Below are positions 4,533 through 56,367 of a stretch of 56,815 nt of DNA, in pieces. Under the pieces are notes generated by a model. It made no database searches. It saw only the letters and a list, made by a program, of their open reading frames with translations, and was not told the origin of the DNA. Every line of letters starts with the position of its first letter. Positions within the stretch are counted from its first letter, which is position 1. The DNA is taken from assembly GCA_009692865.1 (NCBI GenBank), contig SHYH01000003.1:1-56815 (forward strand). The letters run 5' to 3'. Position numbers and translations under genes: made by a program. This DNA is from Dehalococcoidia bacterium (GTDB taxonomy: Bacteria; Chloroflexota; Dehalococcoidia; Lucifugimonadales; GCA-2717565).

Positions 4533-4548
4533 ACCTCTTCTGGGCTAC

Positions 4549-4694
4549 TAACAGGCTGCGGAAAAACCTTCTCGCCCATCCCCTTTCCCCCTTCCTGGCC
4601 AGGAAGGGGGTGGGAATTATATCTGGCGGACACCCCCAGACCCCTGCCAAAGGGGCTTCGCCCCTCTGGACTCCCCTATTTCCGCAGCCTACTG
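4549..4694 (+). mobile_element. MITE-like repeat family A, copy 1
   Basis: Terminal inverted repeats AGGCTGCGGAAA/TTTCCGCAGCCT; core CCCCTTCCTGGCCAGGAAGGGG shared with copies at 34194, 43912, 48899. Confidence 0.85.
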
Positions 4695-4831
4695 ACGTCC
4701 CTTCTCCCCCAAGGGAAAAGGGTAGGATGAGGAAGAGTTGTCGCCTTGTCTTTGCGGGATGGCCGCAGACATCCTTTGGGAGTATTGACCTTCTCCCCGT
4801 TTTGGGATATATGGGATGGTGTAAGCTAGAC

Positions 4832-18403: not shown

Positions 18404-18431
18404 GTAGGGGCGATTCATGAATCGCCCCTAC
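18404..18431. repeat. GTAG-family REP palindrome
   Basis: Perfect 28-bp palindrome GTAGGGGCGATTCATGAATCGCCCCTAC. Confidence 0.8.
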
Positions 18432-26619: not shown

Positions 26620-26718
26620 TTACAAGTTCTTTCGGAGAGGTCTGGGGAACCCTTTCTTGCAAAAAAGGGTTCCCCAGGAGCCCTTCCCAAAGAACTCTCG
26701 CCCTTTACTCGTCCGGGG
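26620..26718 (+). repeat. Repeat family B, copy 1
   Basis: GTTCTTTCGGAGAGG..TGGGGAACCC(T)TTCTTGCAA.AAAGGGTTCCCCA; second copy at 38558. Confidence 0.85.
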
Positions 26719-29088: not shown

Positions 29089-29255
29089 CTCAGGGCTTGT
29101 GAGGAAATCTCCCTCTCCCTCACGGAGGGAGAGGGAGAGGGCGAGGGTGGAGGCCCCGATTCCATCGGGGCTCTGGAGACATTCCAACCCCCCCCCCTCA
29201 CTCTAACTCTCTCCCCCAATGGGGGCGAGAGGACAAAAATCACAAACTCTCTGAG
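29089..29255. mobile_element. MITE-like element carrying family C hairpins
   Basis: Imperfect terminal inverted repeats CTCAGGGCTTGTGA/TCACAAACTCTCTGAG enclosing CTCCCTCTCCCTC..GAGGGAGAGGGAG hairpins. Confidence 0.6.
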
Positions 29256-32987: not shown

Positions 32988-33986
32988 CTAGCGAGAGGGG
33001 GTGACCTCGAAGCCCCCATTCAAGGGGTGGGTGTCCAGCACCTTTTCGGGCCTCCACAGCCCCTTGACGAAGTCGTAGCGGCCGACGGCGAGGAACCGCC
33101 CATCGGCGGAGTAGATGCGGCAAGGGTTGACAGGGGCAGGGTACATGCGCCCCGAACCGAAGGGCACCAGGCGCCCCTGCCGGATAGCCTGCTCCATCCC
33201 GCGACTCACCACGGCGGCGTCCATGTTTTGCAGGGCCACGTCTGGTGCGTGGAGAAGCCCCTTCCATGTCCCCTCCTCTGCCCCTTGCTCCACCTCCTCC
33301 AAGCTGACGCCCTCTTCCACCCTTAGCGGGCCGCTCCGCAGGCGGGTCAGTGCAGTCAGGTGGGCGCCGCATCCGAGGACCATTCCGAGGTCGTGGGCCA
33401 GGGAGCGAATGTAGAAGCCCCGACCACACTCGACCTCTATCGTTACGCTGGGGAAGTCCCACTGGAGCAGGCTGATCCTGTAGACCTGGACCTTTCGAGC
33501 AGCCCGCTCCACCTCCACCCCGGCCCGCGCCAGGTCGTACAGCCTTTTCCCCTGGTGCTTCAGGGCGCTGTACATGGGCGGCACCTGGAACACCACCCCC
33601 AGGAAGTCGGCCATGGCTGCCTCCACCTGCTCCCTGGTGAGGGCTGAGGGGTCCCGGACCTCGACCACGGCGCCCTGGGCATCGTAGGTGTCGGTGATCA
33701 CCCCTAAGAGCATGGTGGCGCGGTAGACCTTGGGAGCATCCACCAGGAACTCCATGAGGCGGGTGGCCTGGCCGAAGCAGATGGGAAGCACCCCATCGGC
33801 TAGCGGGTCCAGGGTCCCCGCATGGCCCACCCGCTGCTGGCGGGTGAGGCGTTTGATACGGCGGACCACCTCCATGGATGTGACGCCAGAGGGTTTCCTC
33901 AGGTTGAGGATTCCGTCCACCTGCTCCGGTGGAGGTGTTGTGGGGGAGGGTCGGCGTGCTCTCCCCGGGGGTCCCGCGGTGGCCAT
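32988..33986 (-). CDS. truB: tRNA pseudouridine(55) synthase
   Basis: KP.G.TS, GHAGTLDP, TDTYD, PPMYSALK, YIRSLA.DLG. Confidence 0.96.
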   Translation of the reverse strand: MATAGPPGRARRPSPTTPPPEQVDGILNLRKPSGVTSMEVVRRIKRLTRQQRVGHAGTLDPLADGVLPICFGQATRLMEFLVDAPKVYRATMLLGVITDTYDAQGAVVEVRDPSALTREQVEAAMADFLGVVFQVPPMYSALKHQGKRLYDLARAGVEVERAARKVQVYRISLLQWDFPSVTIEVECGRGFYIRSLAHDLGMVLGCGAHLTALTRLRSGPLRVEEGVSLEEVEQGAEEGTWKGLLHAPDVALQNMDAAVVSRGMEQAIRQGRLVPFGSGRMYPAPVNPCRIYSADGRFLAVGRYDFVKGLWRPEKVLDTHPLNGGFEVTPSR

Positions 33987-34091
33987 TGTTACTCGTGCTC
34001 CTGGGGTTTGGCTGCCTCTACGCGACGATACTGGCCCGAACCATGAAGATGGTTGCGGGCTATGGCTCTGATCTTGGGCAGTGGAGAGAGC

Positions 34092-34169
34092 CACCTCCTA
34101 GAGGAGGATGAGCTCCCCCAGCTCGATGCAGATGAGGTTGTTGATTCGTTCTAGTCGTCGGTTCTTCAC
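34092..34169 (-). pseudogene. rbfA: RbfA N-terminal remnant
   Basis: GTG 34169 reads MKNRRLERINNLICIELGELILL*EV at the canonical infB-truB position. Confidence 0.7.
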
Positions 34170-34193
34170 AGCGGCCTAGGGGCAGTGACTCTT

Positions 34194-34344
34194 TAGCAGG
34201 ATGCTGAAAAACCCTTTCGACCATCCCCCTGTCCCCCTTCCTGGCCAGGAAGGAGGCGGGAATTATATCTGTCCCGACAAGTCGGGAAGACCCCTGCCAA
34301 TCCCGACGAGTCGAGACTGGACACCCCCTTGCCGCAGCCTGTTG
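34194..34344 (+). mobile_element. MITE-like repeat family A, copy 2 (hairpin-swapped)
   Basis: TAGCAGGATGCTGAAAAA...CCGCAGCCTGTTG with the shared core. Confidence 0.85.
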
Positions 34345-34425
34345 GGGTTTGGTGAAGATAAGGGTGCCGGACGATAGTGCCGCAGGGTATGGGGAGGAGA
34401 AAATATCAGGGGGCTGCACAAGGCA

Positions 34426-36276
34426 CTAGACAGAGACCTTTTCCTTCTGGAACGCCTCCAGAAGGTCTCCCTCCTTGAAGTCGGTGAACCCGTCGACGAC
34501 GACTCCGCACTCAAAGCCGGCGGCCATCTCCCGCACGTCGTTCTTAAGGTGTTTCAAGCTGCTGACGTGCCCCTCGTGGAGGCTTTTCCCACCCCGCATC
34601 ACCCGTATCCAAGAGCTGCGGGCGAGCTTGCCATCGCGCACCAGGACTCCTGCCACTTTGCCCGTTTTTCCGACGGAGAAGATGACCCGCACCTCGGCAT
34701 GGCCCTCGATGACCTCCTTCTCCTCGGGCACCAGGAGCCCCGCCAGGGCCTTCTGAACGTCCTCTACCAGGCGGTAGATGATGTCGTAGTAGCGGATGTC
34801 CACGCCGGAGGTCTCGGCCAGGCGTCGGGCGCCGGGCTCGGGCTTGCTGTAGAAACCCAGGATGATGGCCTTGGAGGCGATGGCCAGCAGAACATCGCTC
34901 TCGGTGATGCTGCCGCTGGCGACGTGGATGATGTGGACCCGCGTGCGGGGCGAGGCCAGGTGCTCCAGGGCCTCTCGGACAGCATCGATGCTGCCCTGGA
35001 AGTCGGTCTTAACAACCAGGTTGAGCTCCTTCATCTCCCCTGCCTGGATCCTGGTGTAGACCTCCTCCAGGGAGACGGCCCTGGTTCGAGCCTGGGCTTG
35101 CTGCTGCTCCCTTTGAGACGCTAGCTCCTTGGCTGCTCTATCGTCTGCCACCACCTCCAGGGTATCCCCCGCCTCCGGGAGCAGGTCCAAGCCCAGGAGC
35201 TCCACAGGAATGGAAGGGCCCGCCTGCTTCACCCGCTGGCCCATGTCGTTGAAGAGGGCCCTGACCCTGCCCGAGGCCCGGCCCACCACCACCGTGTCTC
35301 CTATCTTTATGGTCCCGTTCTGGATCAGCGCTGTGGCCACGGGGCCCCGGTTCTTGTCCAGCCGTGCCTCGATGACCACACCACGGGCAGACCGATTGGG
35401 GTTGGCCTTGAGCTCGGCTACCTCGGCCACCACCAGGATGTTCTCCAAAAGCTCGTCAATGCCCAATCGTTGCTTCGCGGACACCTCCACGGCGATGACG
35501 TCTCCTCCCCACTCCTCTACGATGAGGTCATGCTCCGAGAGCTGCCGCTTCACCCGCTCGGGGTCGGCGCCGGGGAGATCCACCTTATTGATGGCTACGA
35601 TGATGGGCACCTTGGCAGCCTTGGCGTGGTTGAGGGCCTCTACCGTCTGGGGCATGACCCCGTCGTCTGCCGCCGTCACCAGCACCGCGATGTCCGTTAC
35701 CTGGGCGCCGCGGGCTCGCATGGCCGTGAAGGCCTCATGGCCAGGGGTGTCCAGGAAGGTGATCTTCTGTCCTTTGTACTCCACCTGGTAGGCGCCGATC
35801 CTCTGAGTGATGCCGCCCACCTCACTAGCCGCCACATTGGTCTGGCGAATGGCATCGAGGAGGGTGGTCTTGCCGTGGTCTACGTGCCCGAGGATGGTGA
35901 CCACAGGGGGCCTCAGCTCCAGGAGAGAGGTGTCCTCTTGGGGTTGCCCTGGGGCAGCCGGCCCGGTGGTTGGCCTGCGCTCCGCACGTCGGACGGGGTG
36001 GAGGCCGAAGTCCGCCACCACCGTGGCCGCGATGTCGTAGGCGACCAACTGGTTGATGTTGGCCATGACCCCGTTGCGCATGAGCTGCTTGATTATCTCA
36101 ACGGGGGTCATTCCCAGCAGCGAGGCTAACCGATGGACCGGCAGGGCCTCGGGCAGCTCTACCCTTCTCGGCCCTCTTGGCTTGGGAGGAGCCCGCAAAG
36201 GCCTACCCGTATCTGGGGTCCCGGCAAGGGCGGCAGCTTGTCCTGGAGAGTCGCTTTGCATCATATCGTTGATCAC
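34426..36276 (-). CDS. infB: Translation initiation factor IF-2 (short N-terminus)
   Basis: [24 protein letters not shown]. Confidence 0.98.
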
Positions 36277-38384: not shown

Positions 38385-38557
38385 CTCTGGGCAAGTAGCG
38401 GAGCCTATCTGGCAGCCTACCGAAAGGGGTTGTCCAGTCCCGACTGAAGTCGCGATGCCGGCCTAACTGGGGAAGACCTTGCTGAACGTGGGTGCAGGCC
38501 GCAAGTGTTGCACCCCGACTGGTCGGCGGCCCCATATTCCCGCATCGGTGTCGAAGA

Positions 38558-38658
38558 TTGCAGGTTCTTTCGGAGAGGAGTGGGGAACCCCTTCTTGCAA
38601 GAAAGGGTTCCCCACGAGCCCTTCCCAGAGAGCTCTCACCCTTTGCTCGTCCCAGGGG
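38558..38658 (+). repeat. Repeat family B, copy 2
   Basis: Aligns end to end with 26620-26718. Confidence 0.85.
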
Positions 38659-43899: not shown

Positions 43900-43911
43900 G
43901 CAGGGTGTGCC

Positions 43912-44061
43912 CTAGCAGGGTAATGAAAAACTCTTTCGACCATCCCCCTGTCCCCCTTCCTAGCCAGGAAGGGGGTGGAAATTATATCTGGGGGACACCC
44001 CCAGGCCCCCGTGCAAAGGGGCTTTGCCCCTCTGCACCCCCCTTCTCCAGCGTCCTGCTAG
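43912..44061 (+). mobile_element. MITE-like repeat family A, copy 3
   Basis: CTAGCAGG...CCTGCTAG ends; between convergent purM and folC. Confidence 0.88.
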
Positions 44062-45425
44062 CCCACCCTAGAGCTCCGAGGAAGCTCCGGGTAAAGCTCC
44101 GGAGGTATCCCCTTCACCTGCTCTCTCGCCTCGGCAACGGCAAAGAGGGAGCCCGTCACGAGCACCATGTCCTCCTCGTTGGCCTGGGAGATGGCGTATC
44201 GAGTGGCCTCGCCCACCTCCGCTACCTCGTGGACTGAAACCCCACGCTGCTGGAAGGGCCGTGCGATGGCGCTGGTGGGCAAGGCCCTGGGGTGGCGAGA
44301 GCGCGTGGCCACCACCAGGGCAGGGTTGAGTCGTGCCAGCTCCTCCACCATGCTTTCGAAGTCCTTGTCGGCGGAGACGCCCAGGACGAGGAGGAGACGG
44401 CGGTGGGGAAGGTCCTCCCCCACGGCCTGCCGCAGCCGGCCCATGGAAGCCGGGTTGTGGGCGCCGTCGACCACCACCAGGGGGTCGCGTTGGAGCACCT
44501 CCAAGCGCCCGGGCCAGCGGACGCTTTCCAGTCCTTGCACCATGTTCCGCTGAGCAATAGAGACCCCCTGGCGCCGTAGGACGTCGAGAGCGGTCACAGC
44601 GGTGGCGGCGTTCTCCATTTGATGCCTCCCCAGCAGGGGAATCCAGAGGGACCACTCCCCCTGGCGACCGCGCAGGGTGAAGGACTGGCCTTCCAAGTCC
44701 TGGGCCGTCCGCTCCCAGGCGTACTCCTGGGCAACCTGCACCAGGGTGGCCCCCCTGGTCTCACACACCTCCTGGATCACGGCCAGCGCCTCTGGTAGCT
44801 GGGGCGCTGTGACCACCGTTACCCCTGGCTTGATGATGCCCGCCTTCTCTCTCGCGATCTCCGCAACGGTGTTGCCCAGAATGGCGGTGTGGTCCAGGCT
44901 AAGGGCAGTGATGACGCAGACCAGAGGTCGCGGCACCATGTTGGTGGCATCCAGGCGCCCGCCCAGGCCCACCTCCAGCACCTGAATGTCGGCCCTCCGG
45001 CGGGCGAAGTGGGCAAAGGCCATGGCGGTGAGCATCTCAAAGGTGGTCACTCCCCCGTGGGGGTCCGTCTTTCCCACTTCTTGAGCTGCATCCGAAAGGC
45101 CTTCCACCAGGGAGGCGAACTCCTGGGCTGTGATGGGGATGAGGCCCATGCGGATGCGCTCGCGGAAGGCATGGAGGTGGGGTGAGGTGTAGAGGCCCGT
45201 CACGTAGCCCTGTTCCGTCAGGGCCGATGCGATCATGGCGGCAGTGCTGCCCTTGCCCTTGGTGCCGGCAAGGTGCACCGTAGGCACCTGCAGGTGGGGG
45301 TTTCCCAGGCGACGCAGGAACTCCTCCATGCGTGTGAGGTCGTAGCGGGGTAGTCCGCCCGTGCGGTAGGCCCGCTCGTAGTCCACCAGGCTAAGAAGGT
45401 GCTGGATGGATTCGCGATAGTCCAA
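44058..45425 (-). CDS. folC: Folylpolyglutamate/dihydrofolate synthase
   Basis: AGTKGKGS, YTSPHL..FRERI, EVGLGGRLDATN, WPGR, DGAHN, TGSL. Confidence 0.96.
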   Translation of the reverse strand: MDYRESIQHLLSLVDYERAYRTGGLPRYDLTRMEEFLRRLGNPHLQVPTVHLAGTKGKGSTAAMIASALTEQGYVTGLYTSPHLHAFRERIRMGLIPITAQEFASLVEGLSDAAQEVGKTDPHGGVTTFEMLTAMAFAHFARRRADIQVLEVGLGGRLDATNMVPRPLVCVITALSLDHTAILGNTVAEIAREKAGIIKPGVTVVTAPQLPEALAVIQEVCETRGATLVQVAQEYAWERTAQDLEGQSFTLRGRQGEWSLWIPLLGRHQMENAATAVTALDVLRRQGVSIAQRNMVQGLESVRWPGRLEVLQRDPLVVVDGAHNPASMGRLRQAVGEDLPHRRLLLVLGVSADKDFESMVEELARLNPALVVATRSRHPRALPTSAIARPFQQRGVSVHEVAEVGEATRYAISQANEEDMVLVTGSLFAVAEAREQVKGIPPELYPELPRSSRVG

Positions 45426-47884: not shown

Positions 47885-48898
47885 ATGGGACCCGTCATAG
47901 GGCATGAGGGCGTGTTGCGCCTCCTGAAACAAAGCCTTCAGAAGGGGCGGCTGGCCCACAGCTACCTCCTGGTGGGGCCGCCTCACGTTGGGAAGATGAC
48001 GGTGGCCCTGTACCTGGCCCAGGCCGTCAACTGCACAGGCTCTTCGCAGCCGTGCCGGGCGTGCTCCCAGTGCGTAAGGATAGCTTCAGGCAGGCACGCC
48101 GACGTCCAGGTCCTGGGCCTGAGAGAGGGCGGGGCCACCAAGGAGATCAGCATTGACCAGGTGCGGGAGATCCAGCGGGCGGCCTCCCTCAAGCCCTTCG
48201 AGGGGAGCTGCCGCGTCTTCATCGTGGAGGGGGCCGAGCGCCTGAGCGCCCATGCCACCAACGCCCTGCTGAAGACCCTGGAGGAGCCGCCGCCTCAGGT
48301 GTTGCTGCTCCTCCTCGCCACCGACGAGGAGGCCCTGTTGCCCACCCTGCGCTCTCGCTGCCAACGGTTGGAGCTGTACTCGCTGGGGGTCCAGGAGGTG
48401 GCTCGCGCCCTTGAAGAGAGGGGTGTGGCCCCCAAGATGGCCCAGCATCTGGCCCTTCACTCTCAGGGGTGTCCCGGCATCGCCTTGCGAGCCCTGGAGG
48501 AGCCGGAATGGCTGGAGGCCCAGGAGGTGGAGGCGGAGCAGGTGGCCCAACTGCTGACGGCCTCTCTCCACCAGAGGTTTGCCCTGGCGGCGGAGCTTGC
48601 CCAGCGGTTTCAGGCCAACCGAGAGGATGTGCAGGCTGTTTTGGGGCTGTGGCTGGAGTGGTGGCGGGACCTGCTTCTGGTCAAGGAGGGGGCGACGGCT
48701 TACCTGGTGCATCCTGAGCTTCGCCCGACGTTGGAGGGCCTGGCCCCTGAGGTGGACGCCCTGGCGGTCGCCCGGAGCCTTCGCCTGATCCAGGAGACCC
48801 TGGATGTGTTGGACCAGAACGCCAACGCCAGGATGGCCCTGGAGCACCTGCTCCTTGGATTCCCGTTCCTGGAGCGTCAGGAGACTGCTGCAACCTGA
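47885..48898 (+). CDS. holB: DNA polymerase III delta' subunit
   Basis: HSYL..GP..VGK, Cys cluster, H.DV, NALLKTLEEPP, SRC. Confidence 0.93.
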   Translation: MGPVIGHEGVLRLLKQSLQKGRLAHSYLLVGPPHVGKMTVALYLAQAVNCTGSSQPCRACSQCVRIASGRHADVQVLGLREGGATKEISIDQVREIQRAASLKPFEGSCRVFIVEGAERLSAHATNALLKTLEEPPPQVLLLLLATDEEALLPTLRSRCQRLELYSLGVQEVARALEERGVAPKMAQHLALHSQGCPGIALRALEEPEWLEAQEVEAEQVAQLLTASLHQRFALAAELAQRFQANREDVQAVLGLWLEWWRDLLLVKEGATAYLVHPELRPTLEGLAPEVDALAVARSLRLIQETLDVLDQNANARMALEHLLLGFPFLERQETAAT

Positions 48899-49047
48899 TA
48901 GCAGGCTGCGGGAAAAGGGGAGTACAGAGGGGCGGAGCCCCTTTGGCGGGGGTCTGGGGGGAACCCCCAGATATCATTCCCACCCCCTTCCTGGCCAGGA
49001 AGGAGGACAAGGGGGATGGTCGCAAGGGTTTTTCAGCATCCTGATAG
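48899..49047 (-). mobile_element. MITE-like repeat family A, copy 4 (inverted)
   Basis: TAGCAGGCTGCGG...TTTTTCAGCATCCTGATAG; reverse complement of the other copies. Confidence 0.88.
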
Positions 49048-49074
49048 AGATGGCATGAGAAGTGAGAGGAAGAG

Positions 49075-55908: not shown

Positions 55909-56367
55909 ATGGTGCGACACGCTTACCTGCTCGTGTTTGTGCTGCTGGCGGTCACCCTAGGGTGCGGCGGGCCTGAGCCTGCGTCCACCTTGTGGACCCG
56001 GCAGTTCGGCTCCTCCATTACAGACTCTGCCAATGGTGTAGGGGTGGATGGGGCAGGGAACGTGTACGTGGTGGGCAATAGCTTCACAGACGGTCCTCTT
56101 CTCCCAGACGCCTTTGTACGCAAGTACGGGCCTAAGGGCACAGAACTGTGGACCAGCCAGTTCGACTCCCCACATGCCAACAGCGCCCAAGGTGGAGCAT
56201 TGGACGAGGCAGGGAACGTGTACGTAGTGGGCTATACAAACGGTGCTCTTCCCGGCCAGACCCCTCTGGGAAGCACTGATGCCTTCGTGCGCAAGTACAC
56301 GCCCGATGGCGAGGAGGTGTGGACCAACTAGTTTGGCTCCGAGGCTATCGACGTTGCCGATGGTGTA
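55909..56367 (+). pseudogene. SBBP beta-propeller repeat lipoprotein, interrupted and truncated
   Basis: Lipobox TLGC; repeats WTRQFGS...VD..GNVYVVG...DAFVRKY; third repeat WTN*FGSEAIDVADGV. Confidence 0.75.

Follow-up and report, generated by a model that had tools for sequence, protein, structure and literature searches.

In E. coli, the bacterial interspersed mosaic elements (BIMEs), like mosaic intergenic repeats elsewhere, combine a small set of palindromic and non-palindromic modules in varied ways. The subject of this work is another modular repeat, a miniature inverted-repeat transposable element (MITE) designated family A, in a 56,815-nt contig of a Dehalococcoidia bacterium (SHYH01000003.1 of assembly GCA_009692865.1), the whole of which is referred to as the window. 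The window contains four family-A copies, and in the second of them (copy 2) a 16-nt palindrome, P, is present in two of the hairpin positions, or slots, of the element. The modules of BIMEs are strung side by side, whereas those of family A substitute at fixed positions in an element bounded by terminal inverted repeats (TIRs). The metagenome-assembled genome holding the window (G000) comprises 1.41 Mb in 75 contigs with 64% G+C and is 82.7% complete. Contigs of G000 are denoted by C numbers (the window being C26), numbered genomes by G numbers and fetched loci by L numbers.

In passages of Di Nocera, De Gregorio & Rocco (2013, PMC3733652), GTAG-23 units of Thermomicrobium roseum are reported to be inserted within small palindromes, CCGSSCC(n3,4)GGSSCGG, and repetitive extragenic palindromes (REPs) inside small palindromes are also noted for Anabaena variabilis and Halothiobacillus neapolitanus. 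CGTC repeats without a dedicated transposase are described in the same passages. As far as those passages go, P resembles REP elements and GTAG/CGTC repeats in being a short (16-35 nt), GC-rich palindrome with tens to hundreds of copies and a patchy occurrence among species. The loops are more variable than the stems, units lie within larger palindromes, and T. roseum likewise belongs to the Chloroflexota. G000 also carries a classic GTAG family, GTAGGGGC...GCCCCTAC, like the REPs known from these passages. Unlike REPs, P has no unpaired GTAG/CGTC tag of its own and is not seen mainly as inverted doublets, and no REP-associated tyrosine transposase (RAYT) was found in G000. Unlike in the T. 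roseum case, as excerpted, P replaces the inner hairpin instead of sitting in an intact target palindrome.

Replication template switching copies and inverts hairpin sequence and makes reverse-complement copies, as set out in parts of Monttinen & Loytynoja (2022, PMC8794818). Mutations of this kind would account for perfect stems, multi-base compensatory changes and loop inversion in one event, and reverse-complement copying of nearby sequence matches the observation that P of slot 1 is the inverse of a slot-2 allele. The copying in that account is local, however, and would not on its own account for the import of one 16-nt unit with constant ends into unlinked hairpins. The original prediction, which proposed a structure-targeted replacement of hairpins by P, knew of no described mechanism. 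This was only partly right, as REPs inside small palindromes and hairpin template switching are described in the passages of PMC3733652 and PMC8794818, respectively.

The likeness of family A to IS5-type MITEs concerns the length of about 150 nt, the roughly 17-nt TIRs, the 4-nt CTAG/CTAT-like repeats, the presence of more than 130 copies, the noncoding sequence and the insertion polymorphism; unlike for those MITEs, no partner transposase was found in G000. To our knowledge, interchangeable hairpin slots are not a described feature of IS5-type MITEs. A keyword search of the open-access literature, without supplements, turned up no published account of hairpin slots that are exchangeable in MITEs of bacteria, and no literature on miniature inverted-repeat elements in Dehalococcoidia was found by a keyword search of open-access texts.

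Palindrome P in family A and in other hairpins

Copy 2 was located at 34187-34349 on the plus strand (nhmmer E 1.8e-42; alignment with the three other window copies), and all its parts are given on that strand. The left TIR (TAGCAGGATGCTGAAAAA, 34194-34211) was identified by direct reading; the element starts at CAGG, after a target-like TTAG. Slot 0 (CCCCCTTCCTGGCCAGGAAGGAGG, 34233-34256) is of the G-type according to reading, alignment and fold. Slot 1 (34272-34287) holds P (TCCCGACAAGTCGGGA), with the outer pairs TCT (34268-34270) and AGA (34288-34290) kept. The aligned conserved spacer (AGACCCCTGCCAA, 34288-34300) separates it from slot 2 (34301-34316), in which reading and alignment revealed a P variant with one stem mismatch (TCCCGACGAGTCGAGA). 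The right anchor CTGGAC and the right TIR (...CCGCAGCCTGTTGG) occupy 34317-34345, also by reading and alignment. The layout is read as ...GGAATTATATCTG, then TCCCGACAAGTCGGGA, AGACCCCTGCCAA and TCCCGACGAGTCGAGA, followed by CTGGAC.

In the other window copies, G-type hairpins were detected in both small slots, slot 1 resembling GGGGACACCCCC and slot 2 resembling AGGGGCTTCGCCCCT, within the same flanks as in copy 2. These are copy 1 (4542-4698, plus strand; alignment, nhmmer and fold), copy 3 (43907-44062, plus strand; alignment and nhmmer) and copy 4 (48896-49050, minus strand; alignment and nhmmer). The description from which the work started, the same palindrome in both slots of copy 2, G-rich hairpins in the other three copies and unchanged flanks, was confirmed by reading and by MAFFT alignment. 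DNA folds resulted in a hairpin in slots 1 and 2 for both G-type and P-type copies. The outer two or three stem pairs are common to both kinds of copy (TCT/AGA in slot 1, CCA/TGG in slot 2), therefore it is the inner hairpin that differs. The fold of slot 2 in copy 2 was weak, -2.4 kcal/mol and not better than those of shuffled sequences, due to a G>A mismatch.

Family A is a repeat of about 150 nt without coding capacity. According to the MAFFT alignment and direct reading, every window copy is bounded by TIRs (CAGGNTGCNGAAAA...) and flanked by 4-nt repeats such as CTAG or CTAT. Inside, it contains slot 0, a large hairpin in the centre (CCCCCTTCCTGGCCAGGAAGGGGG), and two small hairpins (slots 1 and 2) with AGACCCCNNCCAA between them. 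The TIRs are roughly 17 nt long; in each of the four copies the left end CAGGNTGCNGAAAA is complementary to the right end, and the fold of copy 1 pairs both ends. The 4-nt target-site repeats, of the YTAR type, are exact in copy 3 (CTAG/CTAG) and copy 4 (CTAT/CTAT) and have one mismatch in copy 1 (CTAA/CTGA) and copy 2 (TTAG/TTGG). A hidden Markov model built from the four copies and searched with nhmmer against the contigs of G000 yielded 166 non-overlapping matches, 136 of them at E<1e-8. By analogy, a scaffold with these TIRs, a 4-nt YTAR-type duplication, this copy number and insertion polymorphism is that of an ordinary IS5-like MITE. No pair of family-A TIRs 400-3000 nt apart and enclosing a transposase, as expected of an autonomous insertion sequence partner, was found in a search confined to G000, at its 82.7% completeness. 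No Rfam family matched the MITE; a single window tRNA alone reached the gathering score.

Both small slots could be classified in 130 family-A copies of G000. The states of slot 1 and slot 2 were G/G in 100 copies, G/P in 13, P/P in 6 (including copy 2), P with a long extra module plus a G-type hairpin in 2, and other or unclear in 9. P was determined in slot 2 of 20 of the 130 copies, and all four combinations of the two slots are present. The 8 copies with P in slot 1 are nearly uniform: the 28-nt block ATCTG-P-AGACCCC is exact in six, with 1 and 2 differences in the remaining two. The GGCC-loop form of slot 0 was found in 86 of the 130 copies, and a P-cored slot 0 in one classified copy, C21:2441, and in the deviant copy C56:3528 of the context listing. 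No graded intermediates between the G-type and P were seen among the 130 copies. Point mutation cannot explain the swap. As every slot change is a complex 16-nt replacement and all combinations exist, either recombination or recurrence is implied.

Further variation of family A was observed outside these states. The loop of slot 0 occurs both ways in copies of the same orientation, CTTCCT-TCC-AGGAAG and CTTCCT-GGA-AGGAAG, at 14 and 15 sites, respectively; such flips are typical of hairpin-mediated inversion or template switching. The copy at C20:774-943 has a single palindrome, TCCCGACCCATCGGGA, between the left and right anchors and looks like a deletion taking out one slot and the spacer. 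Three copies with P in slot 1 (C43:2834-3032, C64:1388-1584 and C17:5345-5542) carry an extra hairpin module of about 24 nt in the left arm. The module begins with CCCCGATAAATACGGGG, but in the C17 copy it is a further P, TCCCGATGCAGCATCGGGA.

P is defined here as (G)TCCCGAY-N2-5-RTCGGGA(C) and was counted in a loose (CCCGAY-N1-6-RTCGGG) and a strict form (TCCCGAY-N2-3-RTCGGGA). In the window, TCCCGAC-N2-4-GTCGNGA was detected at 3 sites (4 strand matches), compared with 0.01 expected from 100 shuffles. G000 contains 71 strict sites, compared with 0 for the reversed control, and 113 loose sites, 83 of which have the T...A extension; the possibility that the motif is rare does not hold genome-wide. 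Twenty-six of the loose sites lie in family-A matches; the other 87 are spread over no fewer than four additional repeat families and numerous single loci. By eye, most of a 17-site cluster was assigned to a second MITE family, TGTCATTGCGAG...CTCGCAATGACA, and most of a 16-site cluster, likewise by eye, to a third one (family D), the right end of which is common to family A. The remaining outside sites fall into several smaller families and 39 single loci.

The two related palindromes pointed out in the original prediction are both present, at 38438-38455 and 29156-29170. The former (TCCCGACTGAAGTCGCGA, plus strand) belongs to a family-D copy, compared by eye with C19:54242 and C58:27555; when it is read on the minus strand, CTGGAC and a right end resembling that of family A come after it. 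The latter (CCCGATTCCATCGGG, plus strand) was read in a further repeat, which has a second copy at C42:13390.

Many of the single loci are long perfect hairpins tipped by P. Among the 18 P sites with at least 6 bp of extra stem, 15 distinct outer stems were counted, and P is located at the apex of unique hairpins that belong to no family, such as AAAAGAGC-P-GCTCTTTT at C5:15235 and AAAAAGCCGC-P-GCGGCTTTTT at C63:487. In the GTAG-type REP family of G000, GTAGGGGC-N4-CATG-N4-GCCCCTAC, the inner four pairs covary and are perfectly complementary at each locus; its outer stem encloses inner stems of the N4-CATG-N4 type at 16 loci and P at 6. The second MITE family has the slot variants GTCATTCCGAG/TCCCGATCTATCGGGA/CGAGGAATCTAG and GTCATTCCGAG/GCCCCTGGCAAGGGGGC/CGAGGAATCTAG and, judged from these sequences, behaves at its slot like family A. 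P is a discrete, abundant unit that recurs at the apex of unrelated hairpins.

The bases next to P are for the most part paired with each other, as GT...AC at 36 of the 113 sites and in other combinations at the rest. A conserved unpaired 5' GTAG/CGTC tag was absent from these sites, GTAG occurring only where P sits in the GTAGGGGC REP. P is mostly extragenic; about 10 sites, judged by eye and not from gene calls, are in sequence resembling an open reading frame (ORF) and have no outer stem. Pairs of P were seen in some families, at the ends of family B and at loci of G024. Copies of the GTAG REP were observed at window positions 18404-18431 and at about 21 other loci of G000, for example C55:26971-26999 and C10:2684-2712. 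At C43:9684-9745, after what by eye appears to be the 3' end of a 23S rRNA gene and before a tRNA-fMet gene, a partial tRNA-fMet copy was noticed, with TCCCGATGCTATCGGGA in place of 7 nt of the D-arm region and the join at a common TCGGG.

Among the 40 other genomes of the same order, 13 contain 8-179 strict P sites and the other 27 contain 0-3, with 0-1 for the reversed control. In a class-level sample of 151 genomes, 9 have at least 8 strict sites, with up to 560 and 404, and the rest 0-3. Such a patchy distribution suits a selfish repeat. It also bears on the explanation that P is a site of host function, for example a protein-binding hairpin, a terminator or an RNA stabiliser, recruited repeatedly by selection. 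Two of the long P hairpins, bordered by an A-run and a T-run, do resemble bidirectional terminators, and the position of copy 2 also counts in favour of this explanation. Copy 2 is located 77 nt past the infB stop (34426, minus strand; IF-2 domains in 34426-36276, minus strand) and, by the apparent rbfA start at about 34172 (minus strand), some 20 nt before rbfA, and therefore inside an operon spacer. The infB-rbfA spacer corresponds to window positions 34095-34425 (331 nt), with truB next downstream, so that copy 2 is probably transcribed together with infB-rbfA, antisense to the orientation used here. However, a host function is difficult to reconcile with the finding that 27 of 41 genomes at the order level and 142 of 151 at the class level have 0-3 strict sites, when the others have 8-560, and point mutation is very unlikely to have generated a 14-16-nt motif independently. 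In addition, P of slot 2 decays like other hairpins (9.4% from its consensus). Recruitment by selection is regarded as highly improbable.

Different histories of the two slots

The slot-2 junction, CAA-P-CTGNAC, was scanned with at most 2 mismatches in 41 order-level genomes including G000 and matched in 10 of them. Sixteen loci of relatives were fetched by P-containing patterns, which biases the sample towards P. Twelve of these are family-A copies with P or a P-like palindrome in slot 2 and a slot 1 without P, two have P in slot 1 and a G-type slot 2, and two have no family-A match. As P was also found in slot 2 of family-A copies in six other genomes, it represents an old allele of this slot, with a TT or TC loop in the relatives and mostly the flipped form GA in G000. 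In contrast, the slot-1 junction ATCTG-P-AGACCCC was detected in 8 copies of G000, in 1 copy of G029 and in none of the other 39 genomes. The slots 1 and 2 have different histories, and slot-1 P is the younger allele, almost confined to this lineage.

The metagenome search via the flanking IF-2 protein gave 80 loci that were kept, among which L037 (93% amino acid identity) is the sole close relative. This metagenome contig, with 92% DNA identity in infB, has the orthologous site without copy 2, therefore family A has been moving since that split. The orthologous infB-rbfA spacer (L037:2041-2607) is 567 nt long compared with 331 nt in the window and holds different G/C-rich hairpin repeats. According to the nhmmer list, L037:77-152 matches a part of family A where the window shows no family-A copy. 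No orthologous MITE copy was recognised in the GTDB relatives, the flanking genes of which are about 65-77% identical; all of these genomes belong to other families except one, which gave no match. In public read data, 2 runs contained the stretch and 10 contained small shares of it. Four sets compared with 33700-34900 at 80% likeness were all Logan contigs that break at the MITE, and none of the pieces among the matches listed bridges unique flank and hairpins.

The divergence from consensus was 9.2% for slot-1 G-type hairpins, 7.5% for slot-2 G-type hairpins, 9.4% for slot-2 P and 18% for the spacer between the slots. The value for slot-1 P was 1 change in 128 positions (0.8%), against 21% for the scaffolds that carry it. 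Common polymorphisms displayed almost no linkage at any distance (mean r2 0.03-0.06), therefore family A carries little tree signal. A subfamily tree required 6 changes for 6 slot-1-P rows and 17 for 18 slot-2-P rows, from about 150 saturated columns of little signal, and pairwise identities were used instead of the tree for subfamily structure.

The recurrent, hairpin-limited substitution by a selfish-looking palindrome is real. The part of the original prediction in which replacement is structure-targeted and spreads the palindrome was supported by the recurrence of P at unrelated hairpin apices, while copy 2 was not shown to have been hit twice. Two private hits in copy 2 were in fact disfavoured, as its haplotype is common to 5 other P/P copies and the slot-1 allele to 8 slot-1-P copies, and as slot-2 P is old. 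Copy 2 most simply obtained both palindromes with its sequence. It is accordingly read as a member of a modular MITE family, in which both P were inherited from a progenitor or exchanged from another copy, after an entry of P by template switching. This reading is preferred, tentatively, at a little less than an even chance.

According to the preferred reading, a conserved scaffold of TIRs, spacers and outer stem pairs would offer three slots, each accepting alternative inner hairpins, and P of copy 2 would be a REP-like dispersed palindrome of Dehalococcoidia with the stem (G)TCCCGAY/RTCGGGA(C) and a loop of 2-5 nt. A hairpin may extrude during replication or repair, and the nascent strand may then switch template to another hairpin. 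The donor for slot 1 would most simply be slot-2 P, which lies at a distance of 29 nt within the element and would have been inverted in the copying. If the strand switched back at the stem base, only the inner hairpin would be replaced as a result. Variants that keep a hairpin would stay transposable, be multiplied in trans by a putative IS5-type transposase and be shuffled among MITE copies by recombination.

The orientation of the two palindromes is consistent with this donor. P of slot 1, with the loop AA, is identical to the opposite strand of the slot-2 allele TCCCGACTTGTCGGGA, with the loop TT, present in G029, G037 and G002, which is precisely the relation expected if the template had switched to the complementary strand. 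For slot 1, one local duplication may thus lie behind the state of both slots, given that TCCCGACTTGTCGGGA is common in the relatives.

Several results weigh against the preferred reading. No copy with both AA in slot 1 and TT in slot 2 was found, so that the proposed pair of donor and recipient is unobserved; moreover, the orientation match has a 50% chance, as the 2-nt loop alone reports orientation. A second slot-1 junction, TTATA-P-CCCCC, is present in 3 copies of G033 and 1 of G039, in which a whole hairpin with an 8-bp stem is replaced. It arose either as a replacement of its own or from the first type by trimming on both sides, and points to recurrence at the same hairpin. The inserted unit has constant ends (T...A, 16-17 nt) in at least 8 unrelated contexts, whereas random template switching should often drag along donor flank. 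At a rate of 9.2%, the binomial probability of at most 1 change in 128 positions is 6e-5. The six P/P copies, compared without the two P/long-module copies, have scaffolds that differ from consensus by 13-28%, where G/G copies average 22% and G/P copies 26%. They form no tight group, with a within-group identity of 0.69 and a value of 0.655 in randomly drawn sets of six (p = 0.10). So little change in slot-1 P is better explained by recent lateral spread to copies that were already old, or by strong constraint, than by simple inheritance.

These data also relate to an explanation in which nothing is specific to hairpins. The P/P state would be an old MITE subfamily, P would be common by descent and by ordinary recombination between MITEs that use one transposase, and the hairpin-limited look would be a survivorship effect. 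The right end of family D (P, CTGGAC and TIR) is common to family A, so chimeras between families do exist. All 8 slot-1-P copies are on the major scaffold type with the GGCC-loop slot 0, for which the chance is about 0.04 given 86 of 130 copies, and the near-zero linkage is what an old, star-like family gives. However, descent within MITEs does not readily account for P capping unique hairpins outside any repeat family, capping GTAG REPs at 6 loci (16 having other inner stems) or replacing tRNA arms in relatives, as described below. The two junction types of slot 1 are also contrary to it, as is the divergence of slot-1 P, about one tenth of that in other hairpins from copies of the same age. 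Ordinary descent and recombination is considered an unlikely alternative.

GIY-YIG and HUH genes as candidate partners

The original prediction had proposed that the process could be driven by an HUH enzyme. This was not sustained in G000, where the Y1/HUH transposase domain (PF01797) gave 0 matches at 82.7% completeness. PF01797 matches were detected in 3 of the 41 order-level genomes, all 3 of them P-rich (p = 0.03). A RAYT-like gene of G028 (L014:1297-1830) scored 69.7 bits with NF047646, below the cut-off of 80, and no P was found within 1.5 kb of it. This gene contains an in-frame REP, GTAGGGGCGGGTTTGAAACCCGCCCCTAC, between the HUH and Tyr motifs, which is read as VGAGLKPAPT; the same REP is present in G000 at C55:26962 and C10:2681. 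A tblastn search with the RAYT-like protein gave no partner in G000, matching only 13-15 amino acids that are the translation of a REP.

A different arrangement was found with GIY-YIG genes. In G024, a gene of 80 amino acids with a GIY-YIG domain (L033:272-514; PF01541, E 3.8e-17) has a tRNA-Val gene on one side and two partial copies of tRNA-Val on the other, and in the latter the 17-nt anticodon arm is replaced by a 17-nt P unit. GIY-YIG homologues adjoin tRNA genes at 5 of 7 order-level and 12 of 12 class-level loci, making up 17 of 19 Dehalococcoidia loci. The loci recorded with this layout are L133 (G024:C9), L134 (G033:C27), L135 (G002:C1), L136 (G028:C1), L137 and L147-L158. Partial tRNA copies with the anticodon arm swapped for P were detected in G024, G033, G002, G028 and G060, both the anticodon arm and the T arm being P-like in G060. 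Other palindromes (GTCGCC..GGCGAC, TCCGCC..GGCGGA and CCCGGC..GCCGGG) take the place of the anticodon arm in G041, G075, G149, G039, G168, G147 and G159. From their sequences, the tRNA-arm swaps appear to be the same hairpin-for-hairpin substitution, in a defined structure and beside a nuclease gene.

Double-hairpin elements occur near mobile endonuclease ORFs in Allomyces mitochondria. In the portion of PMC2330249 on free-standing GIY-YIG genes of the SegB type in the tRNA clusters of phage T4, the likeness consists in small GIY-YIG genes beside tRNAs and in hairpins at the junctions. Unlike these phage and mitochondrial cases, the Dehalococcoidia loci are chromosomal and bacterial, consist of predicted genes and include pseudo-copies with a palindrome in place of the anticodon arm. 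No published account of tRNA arms exchanged for palindromes next to GIY-YIG genes of bacteria came up in a keyword search of the open-access literature. Among the matches listed, the literature combining GIY-YIG, tRNA and hairpins or palindromes was phage or mitochondrial, with no bacterial chromosomes.

The genome-wide association of GIY-YIG homologues with P depended on the sample. At the order level (n=41), a homologue was present in 9 of the 14 genomes rich in P and in 2 of the 27 poor in it (Fisher p = 2e-4, with related genomes that are not independent), whereas at the class level the numbers were 3 of 9 P-rich and 20 of 142 P-poor genomes (p = 0.14). No homologue at E <= 1e-8 was found in the P-rich genomes G049, G065 and G046, with 83, 58 and 22 sites, respectively. 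G000 has 4 GIY-YIG matches, one of them UvrC-like in a 628-aa frame, and neither P nor tRNAs flank the three small ones; the GIY-YIG/tRNA/P arrangement of the relatives was not found in G000. As the order-level association was not reproduced at the class level, GIY-YIG was rejected as a general partner of P. The proposed co-occurrence with RAYT or GIY-YIG genes was accordingly significant for GIY-YIG within the order and not at the class level, and no RAYT was found in G000. An origin of P from tRNAs was also rejected for G000, where 0 of 47 tRNAs have a P-like anticodon arm.

On the basis of these loci, an active homing of hairpins can be considered. A structure-specific endonuclease, either a small free-standing GIY-YIG protein or a RAYT-like HUH enzyme, would cut extruded hairpins, and repair would copy P in, P being a minimal selfish palindrome. 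GIY-YIG genes beside tRNAs together with P-swapped partial tRNA copies in four P-rich relatives (G024, G033, G002 and G028), the same layout with other palindromes in other lineages and the co-occurrence within the order argue for such an enzyme, as does the P-richness of all 3 genomes with a Y1 match. The constant unit ends and the near-invariant slot-1 P would fit an enzyme as well. In contrast, the GIY-YIG/P link fades in the class-level sample, the small GIY-YIG genes of G000 have neither P nor tRNAs at their flanks, no Y1 match was found in that 82.7% complete genome, and the RAYT-like gene of G028 is without P nearby. Homing by cleavage is rather unlikely as the explanation of the data, although a route driven by a GIY-YIG nuclease is, from the gene arrangements, a live lead. 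The broader proposal is a 'hairpin-homing' system of Dehalococcoidia, in which palindromes such as P would be copied from apex to apex, among MITE hairpins, REPs, terminators and tRNA arms, by a structure-specific nuclease with the tRNA-linked small GIY-YIG protein as the prime candidate. This proposal, with copy 2 as one product of such a system, is slightly more doubtful still.

Other window repeats and implications

Two further repeats were observed in the window. A repeat family with the long hairpin GGGGAACCCTTTCTTGCAAAAAAGGGTTCCCC has copies at 26620-26714 and 38558-38652, which are 88% alike, and its hairpin TTTCTT-GC-AAGAAA has 20 occurrences in G000. At 55991-56236, two 90-nt direct repeats, 156 nt apart and 74% alike, may be a repeat within a coding region.

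Under the preferred reading of copy 2 as a member of a modular MITE family, and even if all its steps are ordinary, family A is a clean natural experiment, with more than 130 old copies of a fixed scaffold with swappable hairpins. The link between GIY-YIG genes, tRNAs and palindromes in the relatives supplies a concrete candidate enzyme. If it is true that a small set of palindromes overwrites hairpin apices, this would be a new explanation for REP-like spread without an obvious transposase, which is stated as an open question for CGTC repeats in the passages of PMC3733652. It would also explain the frequent modular look of bacterial repeats. Covariation in repeated hairpins may then stem from copying and not from structural selection, which matters for RNA-structure inference.

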